Positions 22,783 to 62,764 of a stretch of DNA of 64,000 nucleotides are shown here, piece after piece. The notes beneath the pieces are model-generated. The model saw only the letters and a program-made list of their open reading frames with translations. It did not search any database and was not told where the DNA came from. This DNA is from Acidobacteriota bacterium. Lineage in GTDB: Bacteria; Acidobacteriota; Vicinamibacteria; Vicinamibacterales; Fen-181. A program made the position numbers and the translations under genes. Where the stretch lies: contig JADGOB010000006.1 of the NCBI GenBank assembly GCA_017883185.1, positions 2,283 through 66,282 on the forward strand, given 5' to 3'. The stretch's first letter is position 1. Each line of letters opens with the position of its first letter.

Positions 22783-22824
22783 GGGGATCGGGGATCAGGG
22801 ATCGGGGATCAGGGATCAGGGATG
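22783..22824 (+). repeat. heptanucleotide tandem array, 6 units (GGGGATC/AGGGATC), ending in the murD ATG
   Basis: Direct read: ggggatc ggggatc agggatc ggggatc agggatc agggATG. It occupies almost the whole murF-murD spacer. Confidence 0.95.
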
Positions 22825-34554: not shown

Positions 34555-34599
34555 GCTGCTGTCCAAGCCGGTCACCTGGAGGCGGCCGCGCGCTCGGCC

Positions 34600-34627
34600 A
34601 TTCTCCATTCTCAATTCTTCATTTCCG
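34600..34627. repeat. heptanucleotide array, 4 units (ATTCTCC family); inverted partner of 34513-34554
   Basis: attctcc attctca attcttc atttccg. It overlaps the rnhA stop (34611-34613). Its reverse complement (GGAGAAT/TGAGAAT) matches the first array at about 15 of 18 positions. Confidence 0.9.
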
Positions 34628-35895: not shown

Positions 35896-35971
35896 TGGTG
35901 GGCCCACCAGGATTCGAACCTGGGACAGGCCGGTTATGAGCCGGCGGCTCTGACCGCTGAGCTATGGGCCC
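35896..35971 (-). tRNA. tRNA with CAT anticodon (elongator Met, or Ile2 if lysidine-modified), CCA encoded
   Basis: 76-nt cloverleaf folded by hand: acceptor GGGCCCA/TGGGCCC, D-arm GCTC-AGCGGTCA-GAGC, anticodon arm GCCGG-CTCATAA-CCGGC, T-arm CCAGG-TTCGAAT-CCTGG, ACCA end. The G1-C72 pair argues against an initiator. Confidence 0.9.
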
Positions 35972-36872: not shown

Positions 36873-37062
36873 CAACCGCCCCGTCCTCGTCAGCACCGCC
36901 CCGTCCTCGTCAGCACCGACCCGTCCCCGTCAGCACCGACCCGTCCCCGTCAGCACCGCCCCGTCCTCGTCAGCACCGACCCGTCCTCTCGTCAGTTCCG
37001 CCCCGTCCTCGTCGGCACCGACCCGTCCTCGTCAGCACCGACCCGTCCCCGTCAGCACCGAC
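36873..37062. repeat. 20-bp minisatellite, about 9.5 tandem copies, two alternating variants
   Basis: Units caccgCcccgtccTcgtcag and caccgAcccgtccCcgtcag (one 21-nt, one 22-nt and one diverged unit). The array ends 2 nt before the rpoD stop codon (37065-37067). All three plus-strand frames are open across it. Confidence 0.95.
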
Positions 37063-45668: not shown

Positions 45669-45717
45669 ATTCTGACTTCTGAATTCTGTCTTCTGACTTC
45701 CGACTTCTCCCTCCTGC
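45669..45717. repeat. heptanucleotide array, 7 units (ATTCTGA/CTTCTGA family)
   Basis: attctga cttctga attctgt cttctga cttccga cttctcc ctcctgc, followed directly by TATAAT (45718-45723), 11 nt before the lepA ATG. Confidence 0.95.
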
Positions 45718-52808: not shown

Positions 52809-54806
52809 TCAGCGCGCGAAGAAACGGGCGATATCGTCGAGCCGGGAGACAACCGGCGCCGGGGGGAGCGCGTCGAGGAAACGCGCGCCGTAGCCTTTCG
52901 ACCGGATCCGCGGATCGAGCACCGCCAGGACCCCGCGATCGCGGCGATGACGGATCAGTCGGCCGAGGCCCTGCTCGAGCGTCAGGATGGCGAGCGGGAG
53001 CTGGTACCGCTCGAACGCGTTCTCGCCGCGGGCAGTGATCGCGTCGATTCTCGCCGCGGTAATGGGCTCAGTGGGGGACGCAAACGGCAGCTTGTCCACG
53101 ATGACGCAGCTCAGCGCTTCGCCGACGACGTCCACGCCCTGCCAGAAGCTCGACGTCGCGAGCAGCACCGCGTTGCCGAGCGACCGGAACTGCGTCAACA
53201 GGACCGAGCGGGGCGCGCTGCCCTGGACGAGCACCGGATAATCGAGCGCCGACGCGAGCTGGCGCTCGACCTCGCGCAGCACCGAGTAGCTGGTGAAGAG
53301 CACGAACGCACGCCCCTCGGTTCGCTTCAGGATCTCCAGGATCTCGCGGCTGGCGGCCTTCGGGAACAGCGGCGACCGCGGATCGGGCATCGCGGGCGGC
53401 AGGTAGAGGATCGCCTGCTCCGAGTACCTGAACTCAGACGGCAGCCTCACCTCGCTGGCTTCACGTACCCCGAGGCGGCTGCGCACGTACTCGAACGACC
53501 CGGCGACGCTGAGGGTTGCGGAAGTGAGAACCGTGGCCTGCATCCGGTCGAGCAGGAGTTCGCGCACCATGGTCGAAACATCGATCGGCGACGCCCGAAG
53601 AAAGACGCCGCGCCCGCGGGCCTCGAGGTAGTAGACGTAGTCCGGGTCGCCGGCACGCAGCAGGAATCGCAGTTCGTCGCGCATCTCTCCGGCGCGTCGT
53701 CCTACCGCGGCCACGTCTTCACTCGGGTCCCTGGTGAGCGCCGCCACGCCCTGCAGCCCGTCGAGCGCCTCGATCAGCGCAACGCCCGCCGGTTGCACGC
53801 CACTGAGCAAGTCGGCGGTGACGCGCTGGCGATCGGGCGACGACGACCCGCCCTGCAAAACGTATCGCCCGCCGCCTGAGGGCGCCAGCTCGCGCAACGC
53901 GTGGAAGAACAGCATGGTCCTGTCGCGCACGCGGTCGCTGGCACGCCGCATCTCGACCGGGTCGTCCTTGTACGCCCCGCTCGCGACCACCCGCTCGACG
54001 TCCCGCACCAGGTCCTCGACCCGGTAGGTGCTCACCGTCATCCCGAAGTACTGCGTCGCGACGTCCTCGAGCTGGTGCGCTTCGTCGATCACCGCCACGT
54101 GGCACTCGGGGATCACCTCGCCATAGGCGTTCTGCCTGACGGAAGCGTCCGCGCACAGCAGGTGGTGATTGACGATGACAATGTCCGACTCGGCGGCGCG
54201 CTGCCGCATGCGCGTGATGAAGCAGTCCTTGTAGCGCGGGCACTCCGTCCCGACGCAGTTCTCGGACGTGGCCGCCATCTCGGACCAGAACGACAGGTCC
54301 TCGGGCAGGTCCTCGAGTTCGGCCCGGTCGCCCGTGTCAGTCCGTTCCGCCCAATCGGCGATGGCCGCGACCGTTTCCGTGTCGGCGAACGCCATCGACA
54401 TCGGGTTGTCGCGGAACAGATCGAACCGGTGGCGGCACAGGTAGTTGCCCCGGCCCTTCATGCAGGTGGCCTTGAAGGGCACGCCGAGCGCCTCCTGCAG
54501 GACCGGCAGGTCCTTCGAGAAGATCTGTTCCTGGAGGGTTTTGGTCCCGGTCGAGACCAGGACGCGGCGGCCGCTCAGGATCGCGGGGACGAGGTAGGCG
54601 ATCGTCTTGCCGGTGCCCGTTCCAGCTTCGGCCAGCAGGACGTGGCCGTCTTCGATGGCGTCGGCGACGGCGGCGGCCATCGCCCGCTGGCCGGGACGCG
54701 ACTCGAACTCGGGCACCGCCCGGGCCAGCGCGCCATCTTCGGCAAACACGCGGTCCACGATCGCGGACAGGCTGCGGGCCGCCGGAACCGACTTACCGTG
54801 GGACAT
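52809..54806 (-). CDS. dinG: ATP-dependent DNA helicase, DinG/XPD family (Fe-S)
   Basis: Track ORF 52809..54869, trimmed to ATG 54806 (MSHGKSVPAARSL...). Walker A AEAGTGTGKT, DEAH box VIDEAHQLED, and four Cys (CMKGRGNYLC ... CVGTECPRYKDC). Confidence 0.88.
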   Translation of the reverse strand: MSHGKSVPAARSLSAIVDRVFAEDGALARAVPEFESRPGQRAMAAAVADAIEDGHVLLAEAGTGTGKTIAYLVPAILSGRRVLVSTGTKTLQEQIFSKDLPVLQEALGVPFKATCMKGRGNYLCRHRFDLFRDNPMSMAFADTETVAAIADWAERTDTGDRAELEDLPEDLSFWSEMAATSENCVGTECPRYKDCFITRMRQRAAESDIVIVNHHLLCADASVRQNAYGEVIPECHVAVIDEAHQLEDVATQYFGMTVSTYRVEDLVRDVERVVASGAYKDDPVEMRRASDRVRDRTMLFFHALRELAPSGGGRYVLQGGSSSPDRQRVTADLLSGVQPAGVALIEALDGLQGVAALTRDPSEDVAAVGRRAGEMRDELRFLLRAGDPDYVYYLEARGRGVFLRASPIDVSTMVRELLLDRMQATVLTSATLSVAGSFEYVRSRLGVREASEVRLPSEFRYSEQAILYLPPAMPDPRSPLFPKAASREILEILKRTEGRAFVLFTSYSVLREVERQLASALDYPVLVQGSAPRSVLLTQFRSLGNAVLLATSSFWQGVDVVGEALSCVIVDKLPFASPTEPITAARIDAITARGENAFERYQLPLAILTLEQGLGRLIRHRRDRGVLAVLDPRIRSKGYGARFLDALPPAPVVSRLDDIARFFAR

Positions 54807-55251
54807 CCGCGTGCGAACCCTGAAGCGCCATGATCTTGTCCACGCGCCGCTGGTGGCGGCCGCCGGCAAACGGCGTCTCGAGGAAGAGGCGCACGATCGC
54901 CATGGCGAGGTCCGGGGGCGTCAGCCGGGCGCCGAGCGTGAGCACGTTGGCGTCGTTGTGCTCGCGGCAGAGCCGGGCCGATTCGAGGTCGCCGGCCGCC
55001 GCGGCGCGAATGCCGTCCACCTTGTTGGCGGCCATGGCCATCCCGATCCCGGTGCCGCAGATGAGGATGCCGCGGTCGCACGCGCCCGAGACGACCAGCC
55101 GGGCCACCGCCTCGGCATAGTCGGGATAGTCCACCGACGCGTCCCCGGTGGTCCCCGCATCGTCAAGGGCGACGCCCGCGTCGATCAGGCCCGCCTTGAG
55201 CGTTTCCTTCAGCAGGTAGCCTGCGTGATCGGATCCGATGGCAACGCGCAT
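54793..55251 (-). CDS. rpiB: ribose-5-phosphate isomerase B
   Basis: Track ORF 54793..55368, trimmed to ATG 55251 (MRVAIGSDHAGYLLKE...ICGTGIGMAMAANK...). 14-nt overlap with the dinG start. Confidence 0.9.
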   Translation of the reverse strand: MRVAIGSDHAGYLLKETLKAGLIDAGVALDDAGTTGDASVDYPDYAEAVARLVVSGACDRGILICGTGIGMAMAANKVDGIRAAAAGDLESARLCREHNDANVLTLGARLTPPDLAMAIVRLFLETPFAGGRHQRRVDKIMALQGSHADVPR

Positions 55252-55942
55252 GAGTGAATTGTACCCGCGATCGCGGGAACTTGCGACCGGGCGCGCTGCC
55301 CGACCGACAACGACAAAGCACACAGAGCACACAAAGGACGTCGGAAAGACCCCGGCCGACGCCGGCACCGTCGGAAGGGCCTCGCCCTCCGTGTCCTTGG
55401 TGATCTTGGGTACGCCAGTGAGTCCTTTTCATTCTCGCTGACTGAAAGGAGTCAGCCATGTGAATTGCTCGTTCAGCATGTAGCGGCGGTCCGGCACGTG
55501 GAGGCAACAAAGCGTGCGAAGCGGACCGGTTGGCCGTGGCCGCCGCGGCAACGGCCAGCCACGGAGAGGGTCCTCTCCCGACCGCGAAGACGCGAGCCCT
55601 AGCGCAAGCGAACCTGTTTCGGCCTCGTGACACTGCACTGGCGGCGGCCAATCTGCCGAAGATGCTGAAGCCTGCCACCGACGAGGAAGCAACGAGCATC
55701 CGCACTCGTCGGGCCGCTCGGGGTGAGAGGGGAGAGCGCGCGTCGACCGAATGAGAAGGGCGCTGGGAGACCCGGCGAGGGGTGCCGCCGCAGGGCGGGA
55801 CACCGGCACGTGGGAAACCATAACCACGCGGCGGCCTCGGCCGGGAGTCGGACCGGCTCGTAGTAGCGAGGAAGCGGGGTAACGCCCGTGGAGCGAAGGG
55901 GCCGGACTTCACACGCGTTTCTGTCGCAGAAGGAGGTGCCGA

Positions 55943-57289
55943 TTGAGCGACCGCCGCTCTCTGACGGACTGGGAAGCCGACGGCTTCACGCCGGAGGCGC
56001 ACCTGCCAGTGCGGGTCTCGCTGCTGCGCTGGAAACTGGGCCGCAAGGCCAAGCAGGAACCGGGGTTCCGATTCTACAACCTGTTCGGGCACGTGCTGCG
56101 GGCCGACGTGCTGACGGCGGCCAGTCAGCGCGTGCGAGCGAACAAGGGCGGGCCGGGCGTGGATGGCGTCACCTGGGCGACCATCGATGCTCAGCCGGGA
56201 GGGGAGACGGTGTGGCTGGAGGCCCTCGCGGAGGACCTGCGGCGGCACCGCTACCATCCCCAGCCGGTCCGTCGCGTCTACATTCCGAAGGCCGATGGCC
56301 GGCCGCGGCCGCTGGGGATTCCCACGGTCCGCGACCGGGTGGCGCAAGCCGCGGTCCTGCTGGTGATCGAGCCGATCTTCGAAGCGGACTTCGAGGCGTG
56401 CTCGTTTGGCTTCCGCCCGGGGCGGTCGGCCCACCAAGCGCTGGACACGCTGCAGGTGGCCATCAAGGCCGGACGCACCGAGGTCTACGACGCGGACCTG
56501 TCGAGCTACTTCGATACGATCGACCACGGGCGGCTGATGGCGCAGCTCCACCGGCGGATCACCGACAGCGGCGTGCTGCGGCTGATCCGTCTGTGGCTGC
56601 GGTGTCCGATTGCCGAAGAGGACGGCGACAGCGGGACCCGCCTGACGCGTCCCACGCGCGGGACGCCCCAGGGTGGGGTCATCTCGCCGCTGCTGGCCAA
56701 CGTCTATCTGCACGACTTCGACCGCGCCTTCCACGGTCCCGACGGCCCGGCCCAGTTTGCGAACGCGCGGCTGGTGCGGTACGCCGATGACTTCGTGGTC
56801 GTGGCGCGGTGGATGGGGTCGCGCGTCGTCGGTTGGGTCGAGACGATGCTCGAACAGCGGCTGCAGCTCACCATGAATCGGACCAAGACACGGGTAGTAC
56901 GATTGGGAGACCCGGGCACGTCCGTGGATTTTCTGGGGTTCACGCTGCGCTTCCTGCGTGACCGCCACGGACGGCCGCATCGCTATCTCGCGGTCGGCCC
57001 GTCGGCGCGCGCCAGTCAACGCCTGCGCGAGAAGGTGCGGGCGCAGATTGGGTGCGGCTTCAACGGGTCGCTCGCGGCGGCCATCGCGGCCGTCAACGCG
57101 TTGCTGCGCGCCTGGAAGCCCTACTTCGCGTACGGCTATCCCCAGGTCGCGTTTCGGGACCTCAATCATTTCACCCGCGAACGGTTCGGACGCTTCTTGC
57201 GTCATCGGAGTCAACGACGGGCCCGGCCCTTTCGGCGGGGCGAGACGCTCTACGCGGGGTTGCACCGCTATGGCTTTCGTCCGCTGTGA
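55943..57289 (+). CDS. group II intron reverse transcriptase/maturase (no endonuclease domain evident)
   Basis: ORF track, 448 aa. TTG start 7 nt after GGAGG. RT blocks: GVDGVTW, RRVYIPKADGRPRPLGIPTVRDRVAQ, GTPQGGVISPLLANVYL, and VRYADDFVVV (YADD). Maturase X region LLRAWKPYFAYG. Confidence 0.93.
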   Translation: MSDRRSLTDWEADGFTPEAHLPVRVSLLRWKLGRKAKQEPGFRFYNLFGHVLRADVLTAASQRVRANKGGPGVDGVTWATIDAQPGGETVWLEALAEDLRRHRYHPQPVRRVYIPKADGRPRPLGIPTVRDRVAQAAVLLVIEPIFEADFEACSFGFRPGRSAHQALDTLQVAIKAGRTEVYDADLSSYFDTIDHGRLMAQLHRRITDSGVLRLIRLWLRCPIAEEDGDSGTRLTRPTRGTPQGGVISPLLANVYLHDFDRAFHGPDGPAQFANARLVRYADDFVVVARWMGSRVVGWVETMLEQRLQLTMNRTKTRVVRLGDPGTSVDFLGFTLRFLRDRHGRPHRYLAVGPSARASQRLREKVRAQIGCGFNGSLAAAIAAVNALLRAWKPYFAYGYPQVAFRDLNHFTRERFGRFLRHRSQRRARPFRRGETLYAGLHRYGFRPL

Positions 57290-57340
57290 CCGGTCCGTCC
57301 ACAGCTCTCTGCGTCTGCCCTGTGGCGAGAGTGTGTCGGT

Positions 57341-57412
57341 GAGCCGGATGCGGGAAATCTGCATGTCCGGTTCGAAGAGGGGGAGGGGAATCAACCCCCC
57401 TCCCTACTCGAC
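57341..57412 (+). ncRNA. group II intron domains V and VI (catalytic hairpin and branch-site helix)
   Basis: DV: GAGCCGGAUGCGG-GAAA-UCUGCAU(GU)CCGGUUC, with the AGC triad and a 2-nt bulge. DVI: GGGAGGGG-loop-CCCCUCCC with bulged A57406 and a terminal AC. Confidence 0.85.
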
Positions 57413-57463
57413 TGGTTGGAATTCATGCCGGCGTCCAGGGAGGCTTCGCGGTAAGCTAACGCC

Positions 57464-58627
57464 ATGCAGCCATCAGTCGCCGTGTCGGGCCGTGCGGAGG
57501 AGCGAATCCAGGCGGGCCATCTCTGGATCTACAAGAGTGACGTGCTCGACGTGGAGGCAGATCCTGGCGACACGGTGACCGTTCTGGGGGCCCGAGGCCG
57601 CGCAATCGGCCAAGCGCTCTACAGCGACCGGTCGCAGATTACGCTGCGCCTGCTGTCGCACGGCGCGGAGCCGGCGGATGCGGCCCTCTGGCGTCGCCGC
57701 CTCGTCAGCGCGATCGGGTTCCGAGAGACACTGAAGATCGATGCGTCCGCCTGCCGCCTGGTTCATGCCGAGGGCGACCTGCTTCCCTCGCTGATCGTCG
57801 ATCGCTACGGCGACTACCTCGTGGTGCAGTCGTTGTCACAGGGAGTCGAGCGGTTGCTGCCGACGATCACCGGGCTGCTGGTGGAGCTGCTGGCCCCGCG
57901 CGGCATCCTCGCGCGTAACGACGCAAAAGTGCGGGCGCTCGAGGGGCTCGATCAGCGCGTCGAGGTGCTGCACGGCGAGGTGCCCGCCTCGATCACCGTC
58001 CGCGAGGGGCCGATCGAGTACGACGTGGATCCGTGGAAGGGGCAGAAGACCGGCCTGTTCCTGGACCAGCGCGAGAACCGCGTGGCGGCCGCCCAGTACG
58101 CGCGCGGCCGGGTGCTCGACTGCTTCAGCTACAACGGCGGCTTCGCCATGCGGCTGGCCTCGTCGTGCGACGAGGTGACGGCCATCGACATCTCGGCCGA
58201 CGCCGTGGCGCGCATCGCCGCAAACGCGGCGCGCAATCGCCTGCCGCAGATCCAGGTGCGCGAGGCGAACGTGTTCGACGAGTTGCGGCGACTGGAACGC
58301 GAAGCGGGCCGCTTCGATACGATCGTCCTGGATCCGCCTGCATTTGCCAAGAACAAGGCGTCGGTGCCGAAGGCGCTGTCCGGCTATCGCGATATCAACC
58401 TGCGGGCGCTCCGCCTGCTGAAGCCAGGCGGGTTCCTCGTCACCTGCAGTTGTTCCTACAACGTGGACGAGGCGACGTTCGGGCAGGTGATCCGCGAAGC
58501 GGCCACCGACGCGCTCGTGCACGTGGACGTGGTGGAAAAACGCATGCAGGCGCGCGATCACCCCGTGCTGCTGGGCGTCCCCGAGAGCTACTACCTCAAG
58601 TGCTTCATCCTGCGCCGCCTCAGCTGA
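57464..58627 (+). CDS. rlmI: class I SAM-dependent 23S rRNA m5C methyltransferase, RlmI-like (PUA plus MTase)
   Basis: ORF track, 387 aa. HLWIYKSDV (PUA-like N-terminus), QKTGLFLDQREN, VLDCFSYNGGFA, VLDPPAF, TCSCS. Confidence 0.85.
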   Translation: MQPSVAVSGRAEERIQAGHLWIYKSDVLDVEADPGDTVTVLGARGRAIGQALYSDRSQITLRLLSHGAEPADAALWRRRLVSAIGFRETLKIDASACRLVHAEGDLLPSLIVDRYGDYLVVQSLSQGVERLLPTITGLLVELLAPRGILARNDAKVRALEGLDQRVEVLHGEVPASITVREGPIEYDVDPWKGQKTGLFLDQRENRVAAAQYARGRVLDCFSYNGGFAMRLASSCDEVTAIDISADAVARIAANAARNRLPQIQVREANVFDELRRLEREAGRFDTIVLDPPAFAKNKASVPKALSGYRDINLRALRLLKPGGFLVTCSCSYNVDEATFGQVIREAATDALVHVDVVEKRMQARDHPVLLGVPESYYLKCFILRRLS

Positions 58628-58661: not shown

Positions 58662-58726
58662 GGCCATGCTGCGCCGTGCCACCCAGGACCGGCGGATCTC
58701 GCCCGTCCTACCGCGCGCTCACGGCC

Positions 58727-58754
58727 GTCAGCCGTCAGCCGCAAGCCGTCAGGC
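58727..58754. repeat. heptanucleotide array, 4 units (GTCAGCC family)
   Basis: gtcagcc gtcagcc gcaagcc gtcaggc, abutting the S9 peptidase stop (58757-58759). CGCAAGCCG (58740-58748) is complementary to CGGCTTGCG in the 58634 array. Confidence 0.9.
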
Positions 58755-62697: not shown

Positions 62698-62764
62698 CAA
62701 GGCGGCAGGTGGAAAGGCGGGAAGGCGGGAAGGCGGCAGGCGGAGGGCGGACGGCGGAAAGGCT
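62698..62764. repeat. G-rich 7-8-nt tandem array (RRGGCGG units)
   Basis: caaggcgg caggtgg aaaggcgg gaaggcgg gaaggcgg caggcgg agggcgg acggcgg aaaggc, in the divergent spacer between the GH27 and blaI genes. Confidence 0.85.

Follow-up and report, generated by a model that had tools for sequence, protein, structure and literature searches.

The window analysed here is a stretch of 64,000 nucleotides (nt) of acidobacterial DNA (contig JADGOB010000006.1). In it, rpiB and an rlmI-like gene diverge from a 209-nt spacer, and within this spacer, in the same orientation as rlmI, lies an insertion at positions 55410-57412 of the plus strand. On sequence comparison, this insertion is very probably a full-length group II intron retroelement of the IIB-like 'class F' type, without an endonuclease (En) domain and with Ni.ha.I1 (subgroup g3) as its nearest named relative. 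The type of intron is already known; the host phylum is under-sampled. The long spacer between rpiB and rlmI is accounted for by the intron, and its exact coordinates are now available for annotation. The locus is made up as follows.

54793..55251, minus strand: rpiB, with its true start at ATG 55251 and not at GTG 55368
55410..57412, plus strand: complete group II intron, 2003 nt, 5' GUACGCC ... CUACUCGAC 3'
55943..57289, plus strand: intron-encoded reverse transcriptase (RT)/maturase in domain IV, 448 aa, TTG start after GGAGG, no D/En domain
57464..58627, plus strand: rlmI-like 23S rRNA m5C methyltransferase gene, 51 nt 3' of the intron

A first-pass annotation of the locus had proposed a group II intron that encodes an En-less RT and is oriented toward rlmI, and this is backed by Rfam and protein models and by covariation in domains I to III (DI-DIII) and VI (DVI). 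The intron itself, its 3' end, domain V (DV), DVI and the branch-point A stood; the proposed 5' end at 55514 and the assignment to class IIC did not. That annotation had suspected that either the boundary or the class was uncertain, and the suspicion was justified, as both proved to be off.

To place the boundaries, about 150 related loci (designated by L numbers) were gathered from genome and metagenome collections and mapped onto the window. At the 3' junction, 38 copies end alike in DVI (...CTACTCGAC or ...CCCTACTCGAC in 36 and ...CTACTCGCC or ...CTCGCC in two) and then diverge. The sequence that follows begins with TG in most copies, with CG in one clade and with TA in two. The 3' end is therefore 57412, exactly where the first-pass annotation had put it, and the match to RF00029 stops at the same base. 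An end at 57416, considered since a TGGT looked conserved, was rejected: the branch-point A would then lie at -11, and only T/C-G is common to the 38 junctions.

At the 5' junction, about 40 copies read ...YYYYG followed by GTGCGCCAGG or GTTGCGCCAGG, and the homologous base in the window is 55410 (GTACGCC). The family consensus for the 5' end is GUGCGCC (GUGCG or GUUGCG); the window has GUACG, as does L077, and L135 has GUACA. Compared with the GUGYG pattern, and taken together with the pairing between exon-binding site 1 (EBS1) and intron-binding site 1 (IBS1), the start at 55410 holds. The published ends of Ni.ha.I1 (CP000320 75444-77354; label 'g3, Bacterial F' in Table S2 of PMC3552965) align onto window positions 55410 and 57412. 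These three lines of evidence place the 5' end 104 bases before 55514, and the GTGCG that had been taken for the start of the intron forms the 3' strand in one of the DI helices (GCACG...CGUGC). A first alignment, of 10 sequences, had suggested a 5' end at 55400 (GTGATC); this was dropped when 40 junctions were compared. With the 5' end at 55410, the RNA outside the open reading frame (ORF) comes to 533 + 123 = 656 nt, and not to 430 + 123 nt as previously given.

A consensus fold of the ribozyme was obtained with RNAalifold from 34 non-redundant copies. With the alpha-alpha' pairing added, it comprises 127 nested and 8 alpha-alpha' pairs, 135 in all. The elements of the window copy are the following.

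55415..55766, plus strand: domain I, 352 nt, closing helices CCAG/CUGG and a 13-bp stem (RNAalifold)
55437..55456, plus strand: DI hairpin GCUGACU-GAAAGG-AGUCAGC (helix 3)
55457-55480, plus strand: DI helix 4, whose loop carries alpha
55466..55473, plus strand: alpha (UGCUCGUU), forming helix 5 with alpha'
55691..55698, plus strand: alpha' (AACGAGCA), in the terminal loop of the DId3 hairpin (helix 17)
55767..55849, plus strand: domain II (DII), helices 18-20
55850..55908, plus strand: domain III, helices 21-23, containing GUAGUAGCGAGGAAGCGGGGUAACGCCC
57341..57373, plus strand: domain V, AGC triad at 57342-57344, AU bulge, 5-nt loop GAAAU (RF00029)
57377..57409, plus strand: domain VI, bulged branch-point A57406 at -7 (RF00029 alignment)

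In this fold, 96.0% of the cells at consensus pairs are paired, compared to 35-40% after a shift of the 3' partners by 1-3 columns; the percentage is flattered because the fold came from this very alignment. The excess of double-sided changes is still large (86 pairs vs 27-35 in the slid controls), and none of 500 shuffles attained any of five pairing measures. The window copy leaves seven of the 135 consensus pairs unpaired, four of them in DII; the range in its relatives is 1-15.

Covariation extends over the domains upstream of the ORF. Helix 3 has compensatory changes in 6/6 pairs, with 100% of the cells paired, and lies inside the match to RF02003; compensatory changes are also present in helix 4. 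The alpha-alpha' pairing (95% of cells paired, three pairs with double changes) is compensated in L003, L115 and L007, and fully so in Ni.ha.I1. Double changes occur in 18 of the 25 pairs of DII. DIII, which had been noticed as a D3-like stretch and is genuine, is near-invariant in the family and in Ni.ha.I1. The element is thus not a 5'-truncated relic, the case in which no DI to DIV would be found upstream of the ORF.

At the other end, RF00029 matches DV and DVI at 57339-57412 with 55.6 bits (gathering threshold 40). This Rfam comparison had been proposed in the first-pass annotation, whose DV, DVI, bulged A at -7 and terminal AC at 57412 it bears out. DV consists of a 9-bp lower helix, the AU bulge, a 4-bp upper helix and the five-nucleotide loop; the loop (G53-[GAAAU]-C59) is identical in all five relatives with an aligned DV and in Ni.ha.I1. 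The stem of DVI covaries among copies (GAGGGG/CCCCUC, GAGCGG/CCGCUC, GAGAGG/CCUCUC, GAGCAG/CUGCUC). As predicted from the fold and the alignments, all six domains are present and the ribozyme is complete.

The RT/maturase ORF had been described as having an intact YADD and no HNH/En domain, and both points hold. The protein matches TIGR04416 with 353.6 bits (cutoff 300) as well as RVT_1 (PF00078) and GIIM (PF08388), and Pfam and NCBIfam model searches returned no HNH/En domain. It is colinear with the RTs of family members at 70-81% identity, has 448 aa, as nearly all of those do, and has lost neither YADD nor any residue that is invariant in the family. The scores against RF00029 and TIGR04416 show the intron to be real and well beyond a chance match. 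In a set of 72,556 plasmids, the nearest RTs are those of Ni.ha.I1, Bradyrhizobium, Rhizobium and Mesorhizobium, with 41-43% identity. The identity is 40.7% to Ni.ha.I1 and 42% to the g3-type RTs of Bradyrhizobium; the latter plasmid RTs are considered g3 by analogy with the chromosomal g3 RTs of about 442 aa in B. japonicum (PMC3552965 Table S2).

The pairing of the intron with its exons, which the first-pass annotation had left to be identified, was sought across the family. The elements involved are these.

55404..55409, plus strand: IBS1 UCUUGG in the 5' exon, 5/6 positions paired with EBS1, G.G mismatch at -2
55632..55632, plus strand: candidate EBS3, A55632, which would pair with U57413
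55657..55662, plus strand: EBS1 CGAAGA in DI, covarying with the last six bases of the 5' exon
57413..57414, plus strand: start of the 3' exon, UG, with IBS3 = U57413

EBS1 emerged as the top column of a blind scan over all columns, in which it was 92.3% paired with exon positions -6..-1; the maximum in 200 partner shuffles was 83.3%. The EBS1/exon pairs across copies include CGACGG/UCGUCG, CAGAGG/CCUCUG, CGGAUG/AUCCG, CGGAGG/CCUCCG, CUAAGA/CUUAG and CUGAGA/UCUCGG. No EBS2 rose above shuffles in either a column-based or an alignment-free scan, the latter being of low power (even IBS1 reached only p = 0.008 in it). This agrees with splicing assays of IIE/IIF introns, in which EBS1-IBS1 was decisive and EBS2-IBS2 dispensable (PMC3753933). 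The candidate EBS3 (A3 column 232) is G in the copies that have C as the first base of the 3' exon, and A in almost every other copy; it is only suggestive, because the C-type copies all form one clade. For the epsilon' partner of intron position 3, several invariant-U columns fit equally, and all candidate columns are U. If the window copy splices, the expected ligated-exon junction is ...GAUCUUGG/UGGUUGGAAUUC... (AUCUUGG/UGGUUGG).

By its RNA, the intron is assigned to the IIE/IIF structural type and is closest to class F/g3. Ni.ha.I1, from Nitrobacter hamburgensis plasmid 1, is listed as 'Bacterial F', subgroup g3, by Toro & Martinez-Abarca 2013 (PMC3552965). Its RNA can be aligned end to end with that of the window intron, with coincident boundaries. 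The two share the GAAAU loop of DV, DIII, the positions of alpha and alpha', the position of the RF02003 match and an En-less RT (440 vs 448 aa); they differ in RT sequence, in the RF02003 score and in the length of DII and of the DId2 region. Their locations differ too: an IS4 transposase gene for Ni.ha.I1, and non-coding repeat arrays for the window intron family. RF02003 (group-II-D1D4-4) scores 33.7 bits at intron nt 30-147 in the window, 34-47.5 bits in the relatives and 102 bits at nt 25-164 in Ni.ha.I1. The gathering threshold of 49 bits is reached by neither the window nor the relatives. We take the window intron to be homologous to RF02003 and outside the curated boundary of that family.

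The comparison with the IIE/IIF introns Cl.be.I2, Pe.th.I2 and Ge.ur.I1, studied in vitro by Nagy et al. 2013 (PMC3753933), is by description and not by sequence. The idiosyncrasies given there are an IIB-like fold, a length of 450-700 nt without the ORF, an alpha' that is placed at the tip of the DId3 stem-loop and not within a bulge, and a DV loop of 5 nt. With 656 nt, an alpha' in the terminal loop of DId3 and a 5-nt DV loop, the window intron shows the same features. An extra bulge loop in DId3 is also given there as an IIE/IIF feature; several internal loops border helices 13-17 of the window intron, and one of them may correspond to it. In contrast to the window family, in which none is detectable, a putative EBS2 is annotated in the three introns. 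RmInt1 of Sinorhizobium meliloti (class D) resembles the window family in being En-less, in its many copies and in homing to a repeated genomic target; however, it uses EBS1, EBS2 and EBS3, targets an insertion sequence, and is not among the top RT matches.

Several points weigh against reading the element as an active class F-like intron. The ORF-class label is provisional, its basis being an RT identity of about 41% to a single intron labelled class F/g3, together with the shared RNA features. Class F itself is poorly resolved, and its monophyly is disputed (PMC3552965). The best matches of the RT among solved structures are IIC enzymes, with 189 and 184 bits, compared to 146 for T.el4h (ML) and 141 for LtrA (CL). 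The window IBS1 has the G.G mismatch where the ideal site would be UCUUCG, and the intron starts with GUACG instead of GUGCG. Finally, a sigma-70 consensus scan, which is uninformative for this phylum, found no promoter-like site on either side.

Some of these points bear on the earlier assignment, according to which the element would be a compact IIC intron that begins near 55514 and entered downstream of a terminator-like stem-loop. IIC introns (B.h.I1, O.i.I1, GsI-IIC) are like the window family in having an En-less RT, no usable EBS2, and non-coding insertion sites that are often next to inverted repeats; many members of the family adjoin such repeats. We read the match of the RT to IIC structures as no more than the general likeness of En-less RTs. 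IIC introns (O.i.I1 and others) carry a CGC triad in DV, a ribozyme of about 400 nt and a shortened EBS1, and insert just after a terminator hairpin. The window intron has an AGC triad, a 5-nt DV loop, 656 nt of ribozyme with a full-size DI, a 6-nt EBS1, and homology to RF02003 and to the class F/g3 intron Ni.ha.I1. The two upstream hairpins that had been read as terminator-like (55437-55456 and 55457-55480) are the covarying DI helices 3 and 4, inside the intron, and the mapped boundary at 55410, supported by homology and EBS1-IBS1 pairing, refutes the later 5' end. No terminator-like site was found in the region, and shuffled sequences fold as well as the empty site of the window does (z -0.08 and +0.2). 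In the family, where a hairpin exists, the insertion usually lies within its descending arm, whereas IIC introns insert after the terminator hairpin. We regard an IIC intron at this locus as extremely improbable.

The element could also be a genuine class F-like intron of which this particular copy is a dead end: lodged in a near-cognate site, it would splice poorly, and its 2 kb would part rlmI from upstream promoter elements. The mismatch between IBS1 (UCUUGG) and EBS1 (CGAAGA) and the G3A change at the 5' splice site speak for this, as does the concentration of four of the seven unpaired consensus positions in DII. In the tested IIE/IIF ribozymes, disruption of the three EBS1-IBS1 pairs nearest to the splice site degraded fidelity (PMC3753933). 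However, five of the six IBS1 pairs remain, 5' ends with GUAC recur in L077 and L135, and neither the RT nor any catalytic element is damaged. The same intron sequence sits at a perfect site in another assembly, L156, so the element itself should be competent. Moreover, the 51-nt stretch from the intron to rlmI is also conserved in the empty site, so that rlmI may keep a proximal promoter downstream of the insertion. On balance we think it unlikely, but worth serious consideration, that the copy is a dead end.

That the site was once empty is apparent from a relative. In L157, whose RlmI is 90% identical, the order is helicase-rpiB, 142 nt, rlmI, with no RT. The alignment of the L157 spacer to the 3' exon of the window begins no more than a few bases from the junction (GGAATTCGTGCCGG...GGTAAGCTAA...ATG), and a second intronless contig has a spacer of 105 nt. 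About 60 nt directly 5' of the intron (55350-55409) have no counterpart in the empty spacer of L157; this segment contains a 19-nt direct repeat (CGTCGGAAAGACCCCGGCC / CGTCGGAAGGGCCTCGCCC). The possibility that it is a dispersed repeat was rejected, as the window contains it only once.

Four other assemblies (L076, L075, L139 and L156) carry the same intron with more than 99.7% identity in different contexts. L076 has the rpiB flank of the window and the intron, followed after 57418 by an unrelated methyltransferase gene, and L075 has a different 3' flank after 57422. L156 has the intron and rlmI, and its 5' flank, in a recombinase-like ORF, ends with ...GACCUUCG, which provides a perfect IBS1 (CCUUCG) for EBS1. 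L139 (799-1385) retains just the final 587 nt of the intron, with 100% identity to the window, in an unrelated context; incomplete reverse transcription would be expected to leave a 5' truncation of this kind, and so would a chimeric contig. The foreign segments next to the intron in L076 (2777-3903, a gene like that of an S-adenosylmethionine (SAM) methyltransferase) and in L156 (1-893, the recombinase-like ORF) could stem from repeat-induced misassembly or from real recombination between copies.

These contexts raise the question whether the arrangement rpiB-intron-rlmI is itself an assembly chimera, produced by the collapse of a multi-copy repeat, with the intron not truly in the spacer. 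Other assemblies do join the same intron to other flanks (L076, L156), and most family members sit on contigs of about 2 kb. Nevertheless, the adjacency of rpiB and rlmI is ancestral, as the empty sites show, and both window junctions turn up independently in other assemblies, the 5' one in L076 and the 3' one in L156. A chimeric origin of the window arrangement is accordingly very unlikely. The most economical explanation is a population with at least two or three copies, between which short-read assemblies have crossed over; the recombinants between intron copies may be real rather than misassembled.

Because a relative has the empty site and near-identical copies occur in other contexts, the element appears to have moved recently, and we consider it recently mobile. 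Together with the colinear RT, this supports the first-pass description of the intron as apparently intact. As to the number of copies, which that annotation had also raised, there is one within the window (DV occurs once), and the near-identical copies lie in the other assemblies.

If the intron follows the general group II pathway, the plus strand of the spacer would be transcribed and the RT/maturase would bind the intron RNA. Maturase-assisted splicing by branching at A57406 would release a lariat ribonucleoprotein, which would reverse-splice into DNA matching EBS1 and EBS3 (like YYYYCG/UG). RmInt1, IIC introns and other introns without an En domain prime their cDNA at the replication fork, where nascent DNA would presumably be the primer here too; En-less introns are expected on the lagging-strand template. 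Since the site reads UCUUGG instead of the ideal UCUUCG and intron position 3 is A, the window copy probably entered a near-cognate site by retrotransposition.

The family is very large, with at least 8000 RT relatives at E < 1e-30, and is typical of soil Acidobacteriota. Several copies are inserted in tandem arrays of their own target motif (L081, L082, L083, L085, L091, L095, L105, L108, L109, L110, and 55313-55409 in the window). The array motifs include CTTCGTG, ATCCGTG, CTCTGCG and TCGTCG, and EBS1 tracks the array motif. When the target was defined as a 7-mer (the last five exon bases and the first two bases of the 3' exon, one mismatch allowed), a copy's own motif occurred 5.4 times within +-150 nt, compared to 1.6 times in the flanks of copies using a different motif; own exceeded control in 18 of 21 copies. 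Reverse-complement units are found almost only upstream, in the order inverted units, direct units, intron, direct units.

Reconstructed empty sites were also folded as single-stranded DNA (ssDNA). Nine of 19 fold far better than dinucleotide shuffles (z < -2; -12 in L085 and -9 in L086), and in these nine the insertion point is mostly in the descending arm. The other ten, including that of the window, show no such advantage over shuffles. Since the window contains 20 unoccupied exact CTTCGTG sites, a match of 7 nt is not enough by itself to determine insertion. In the literature searched, neither such array targeting nor the targeting of repetitive extragenic palindromes (REP) or other palindromes was described for group II introns other than IIC.

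It is possible, although we put it forward tentatively and with some doubt, that this intron lineage of the Vicinamibacterales homes into the short tandem or inverted arrays of heptamers to nonamers that are scattered through intergenic DNA of its hosts, through EBS1 (and EBS3), without EBS2, and that EBS1 co-diversifies with the array motif (CUUCGUG, AUCCGUG, CUCUGCG, UCGUCG and others). The array and hairpin preference is a lead and not a result, and it is the only part of the analysis that might repay further work.

Some relatives are degenerate. L002 (~2255-2257) has no equivalent of window 55524-55707, which is most of DId, and L006 (1-646) lacks the first ~200 nt of DI; L005 matches only RT residues 1-349, and L130 and L131 only residues 1-283. 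A distant branch (L007, L008, L009, L123, L124, L127 and L129), from Desulfobulbaceae, Desulfobacterales and related metagenome-assembled genomes, has RTs that are about 54% identical and introns that start with GUGUGCC. L007, the only member of this branch tested, matches RF02005 (D1D4-6) and not RF02003; its RF00029 match spans 138 nt, with an apparent long extension in or after DVI.

Concerning the neighbouring genes, the start of rpiB was placed at ATG 55251 because the Pfam LacAB_rpiB and NCBIfam models match only from residue 40-42 of the longer ORF; the orthologue in L157 has 152 aa. The rlmI-like protein has PUA_3 and Methyltrans_SAM domains and scores 433 bits against NF053718, below the equivalog cutoff of 575. 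A 743-aa ORF on the minus strand (55163-57394), which spans the whole intron in antisense, results from the high G+C content and is not to be annotated as a gene. It and the other ORFs that cross the intron are annotation artefacts. Two further 448-aa ORFs in the window were considered as additional RTs and rejected, both being antisense artefacts.

Elsewhere in the window there are at least six seemingly intergenic tandem arrays of period 7, each with a different motif, and only two of them have inverted partner units nearby. Given these six or more arrays with unrelated motifs, period-7 arrays are taken to be a feature of the host genome. These arrays and one further gene are listed here.

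2873-2933: period-7 array CCCCTGA x8.7
22784-22823: period-7 array GGGATCA x5.7
34598-34623: period-7 array CCATTCT x3.7
35899-35971, minus strand: tRNA gene, RF00005 68.4 bits, anticodon loop CUCAUAA, anticodon CAU
45670-45708: period-7 array TTCTGAC x5.6
58724-58752: period-7 array GCCGTCA x4.1
62699-62759: period-7 array AAGGCGG x8.3

A different repeat occupies 36875-37062, where a 20-nt unit (ACCGACCCGTCCTCGTCAGC) is repeated 9.3 times with 89% identity (TRF score 288). Its period is not a multiple of three, though long ORFs are listed across it.

For the host, the insertion means that rlmI either has its transcription start in the 51 nt 3' of the intron or depends on splicing. For metagenomics, the intron family breaks assemblies and gives rise to chimeric contigs, probably including L076 and L156. 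If the array preference is true, each array would offer several equivalent landing sites, and inverted arrays would add a single-stranded hairpin. This would be repeat- or structure-guided targeting by an IIB-type (class F-like) intron, a parallel to the terminator targeting of IIC introns but a different mode. Guidance by structure or repeats would then extend beyond IIC, and it would suggest a simple one-helix rule for retargeting such introns.

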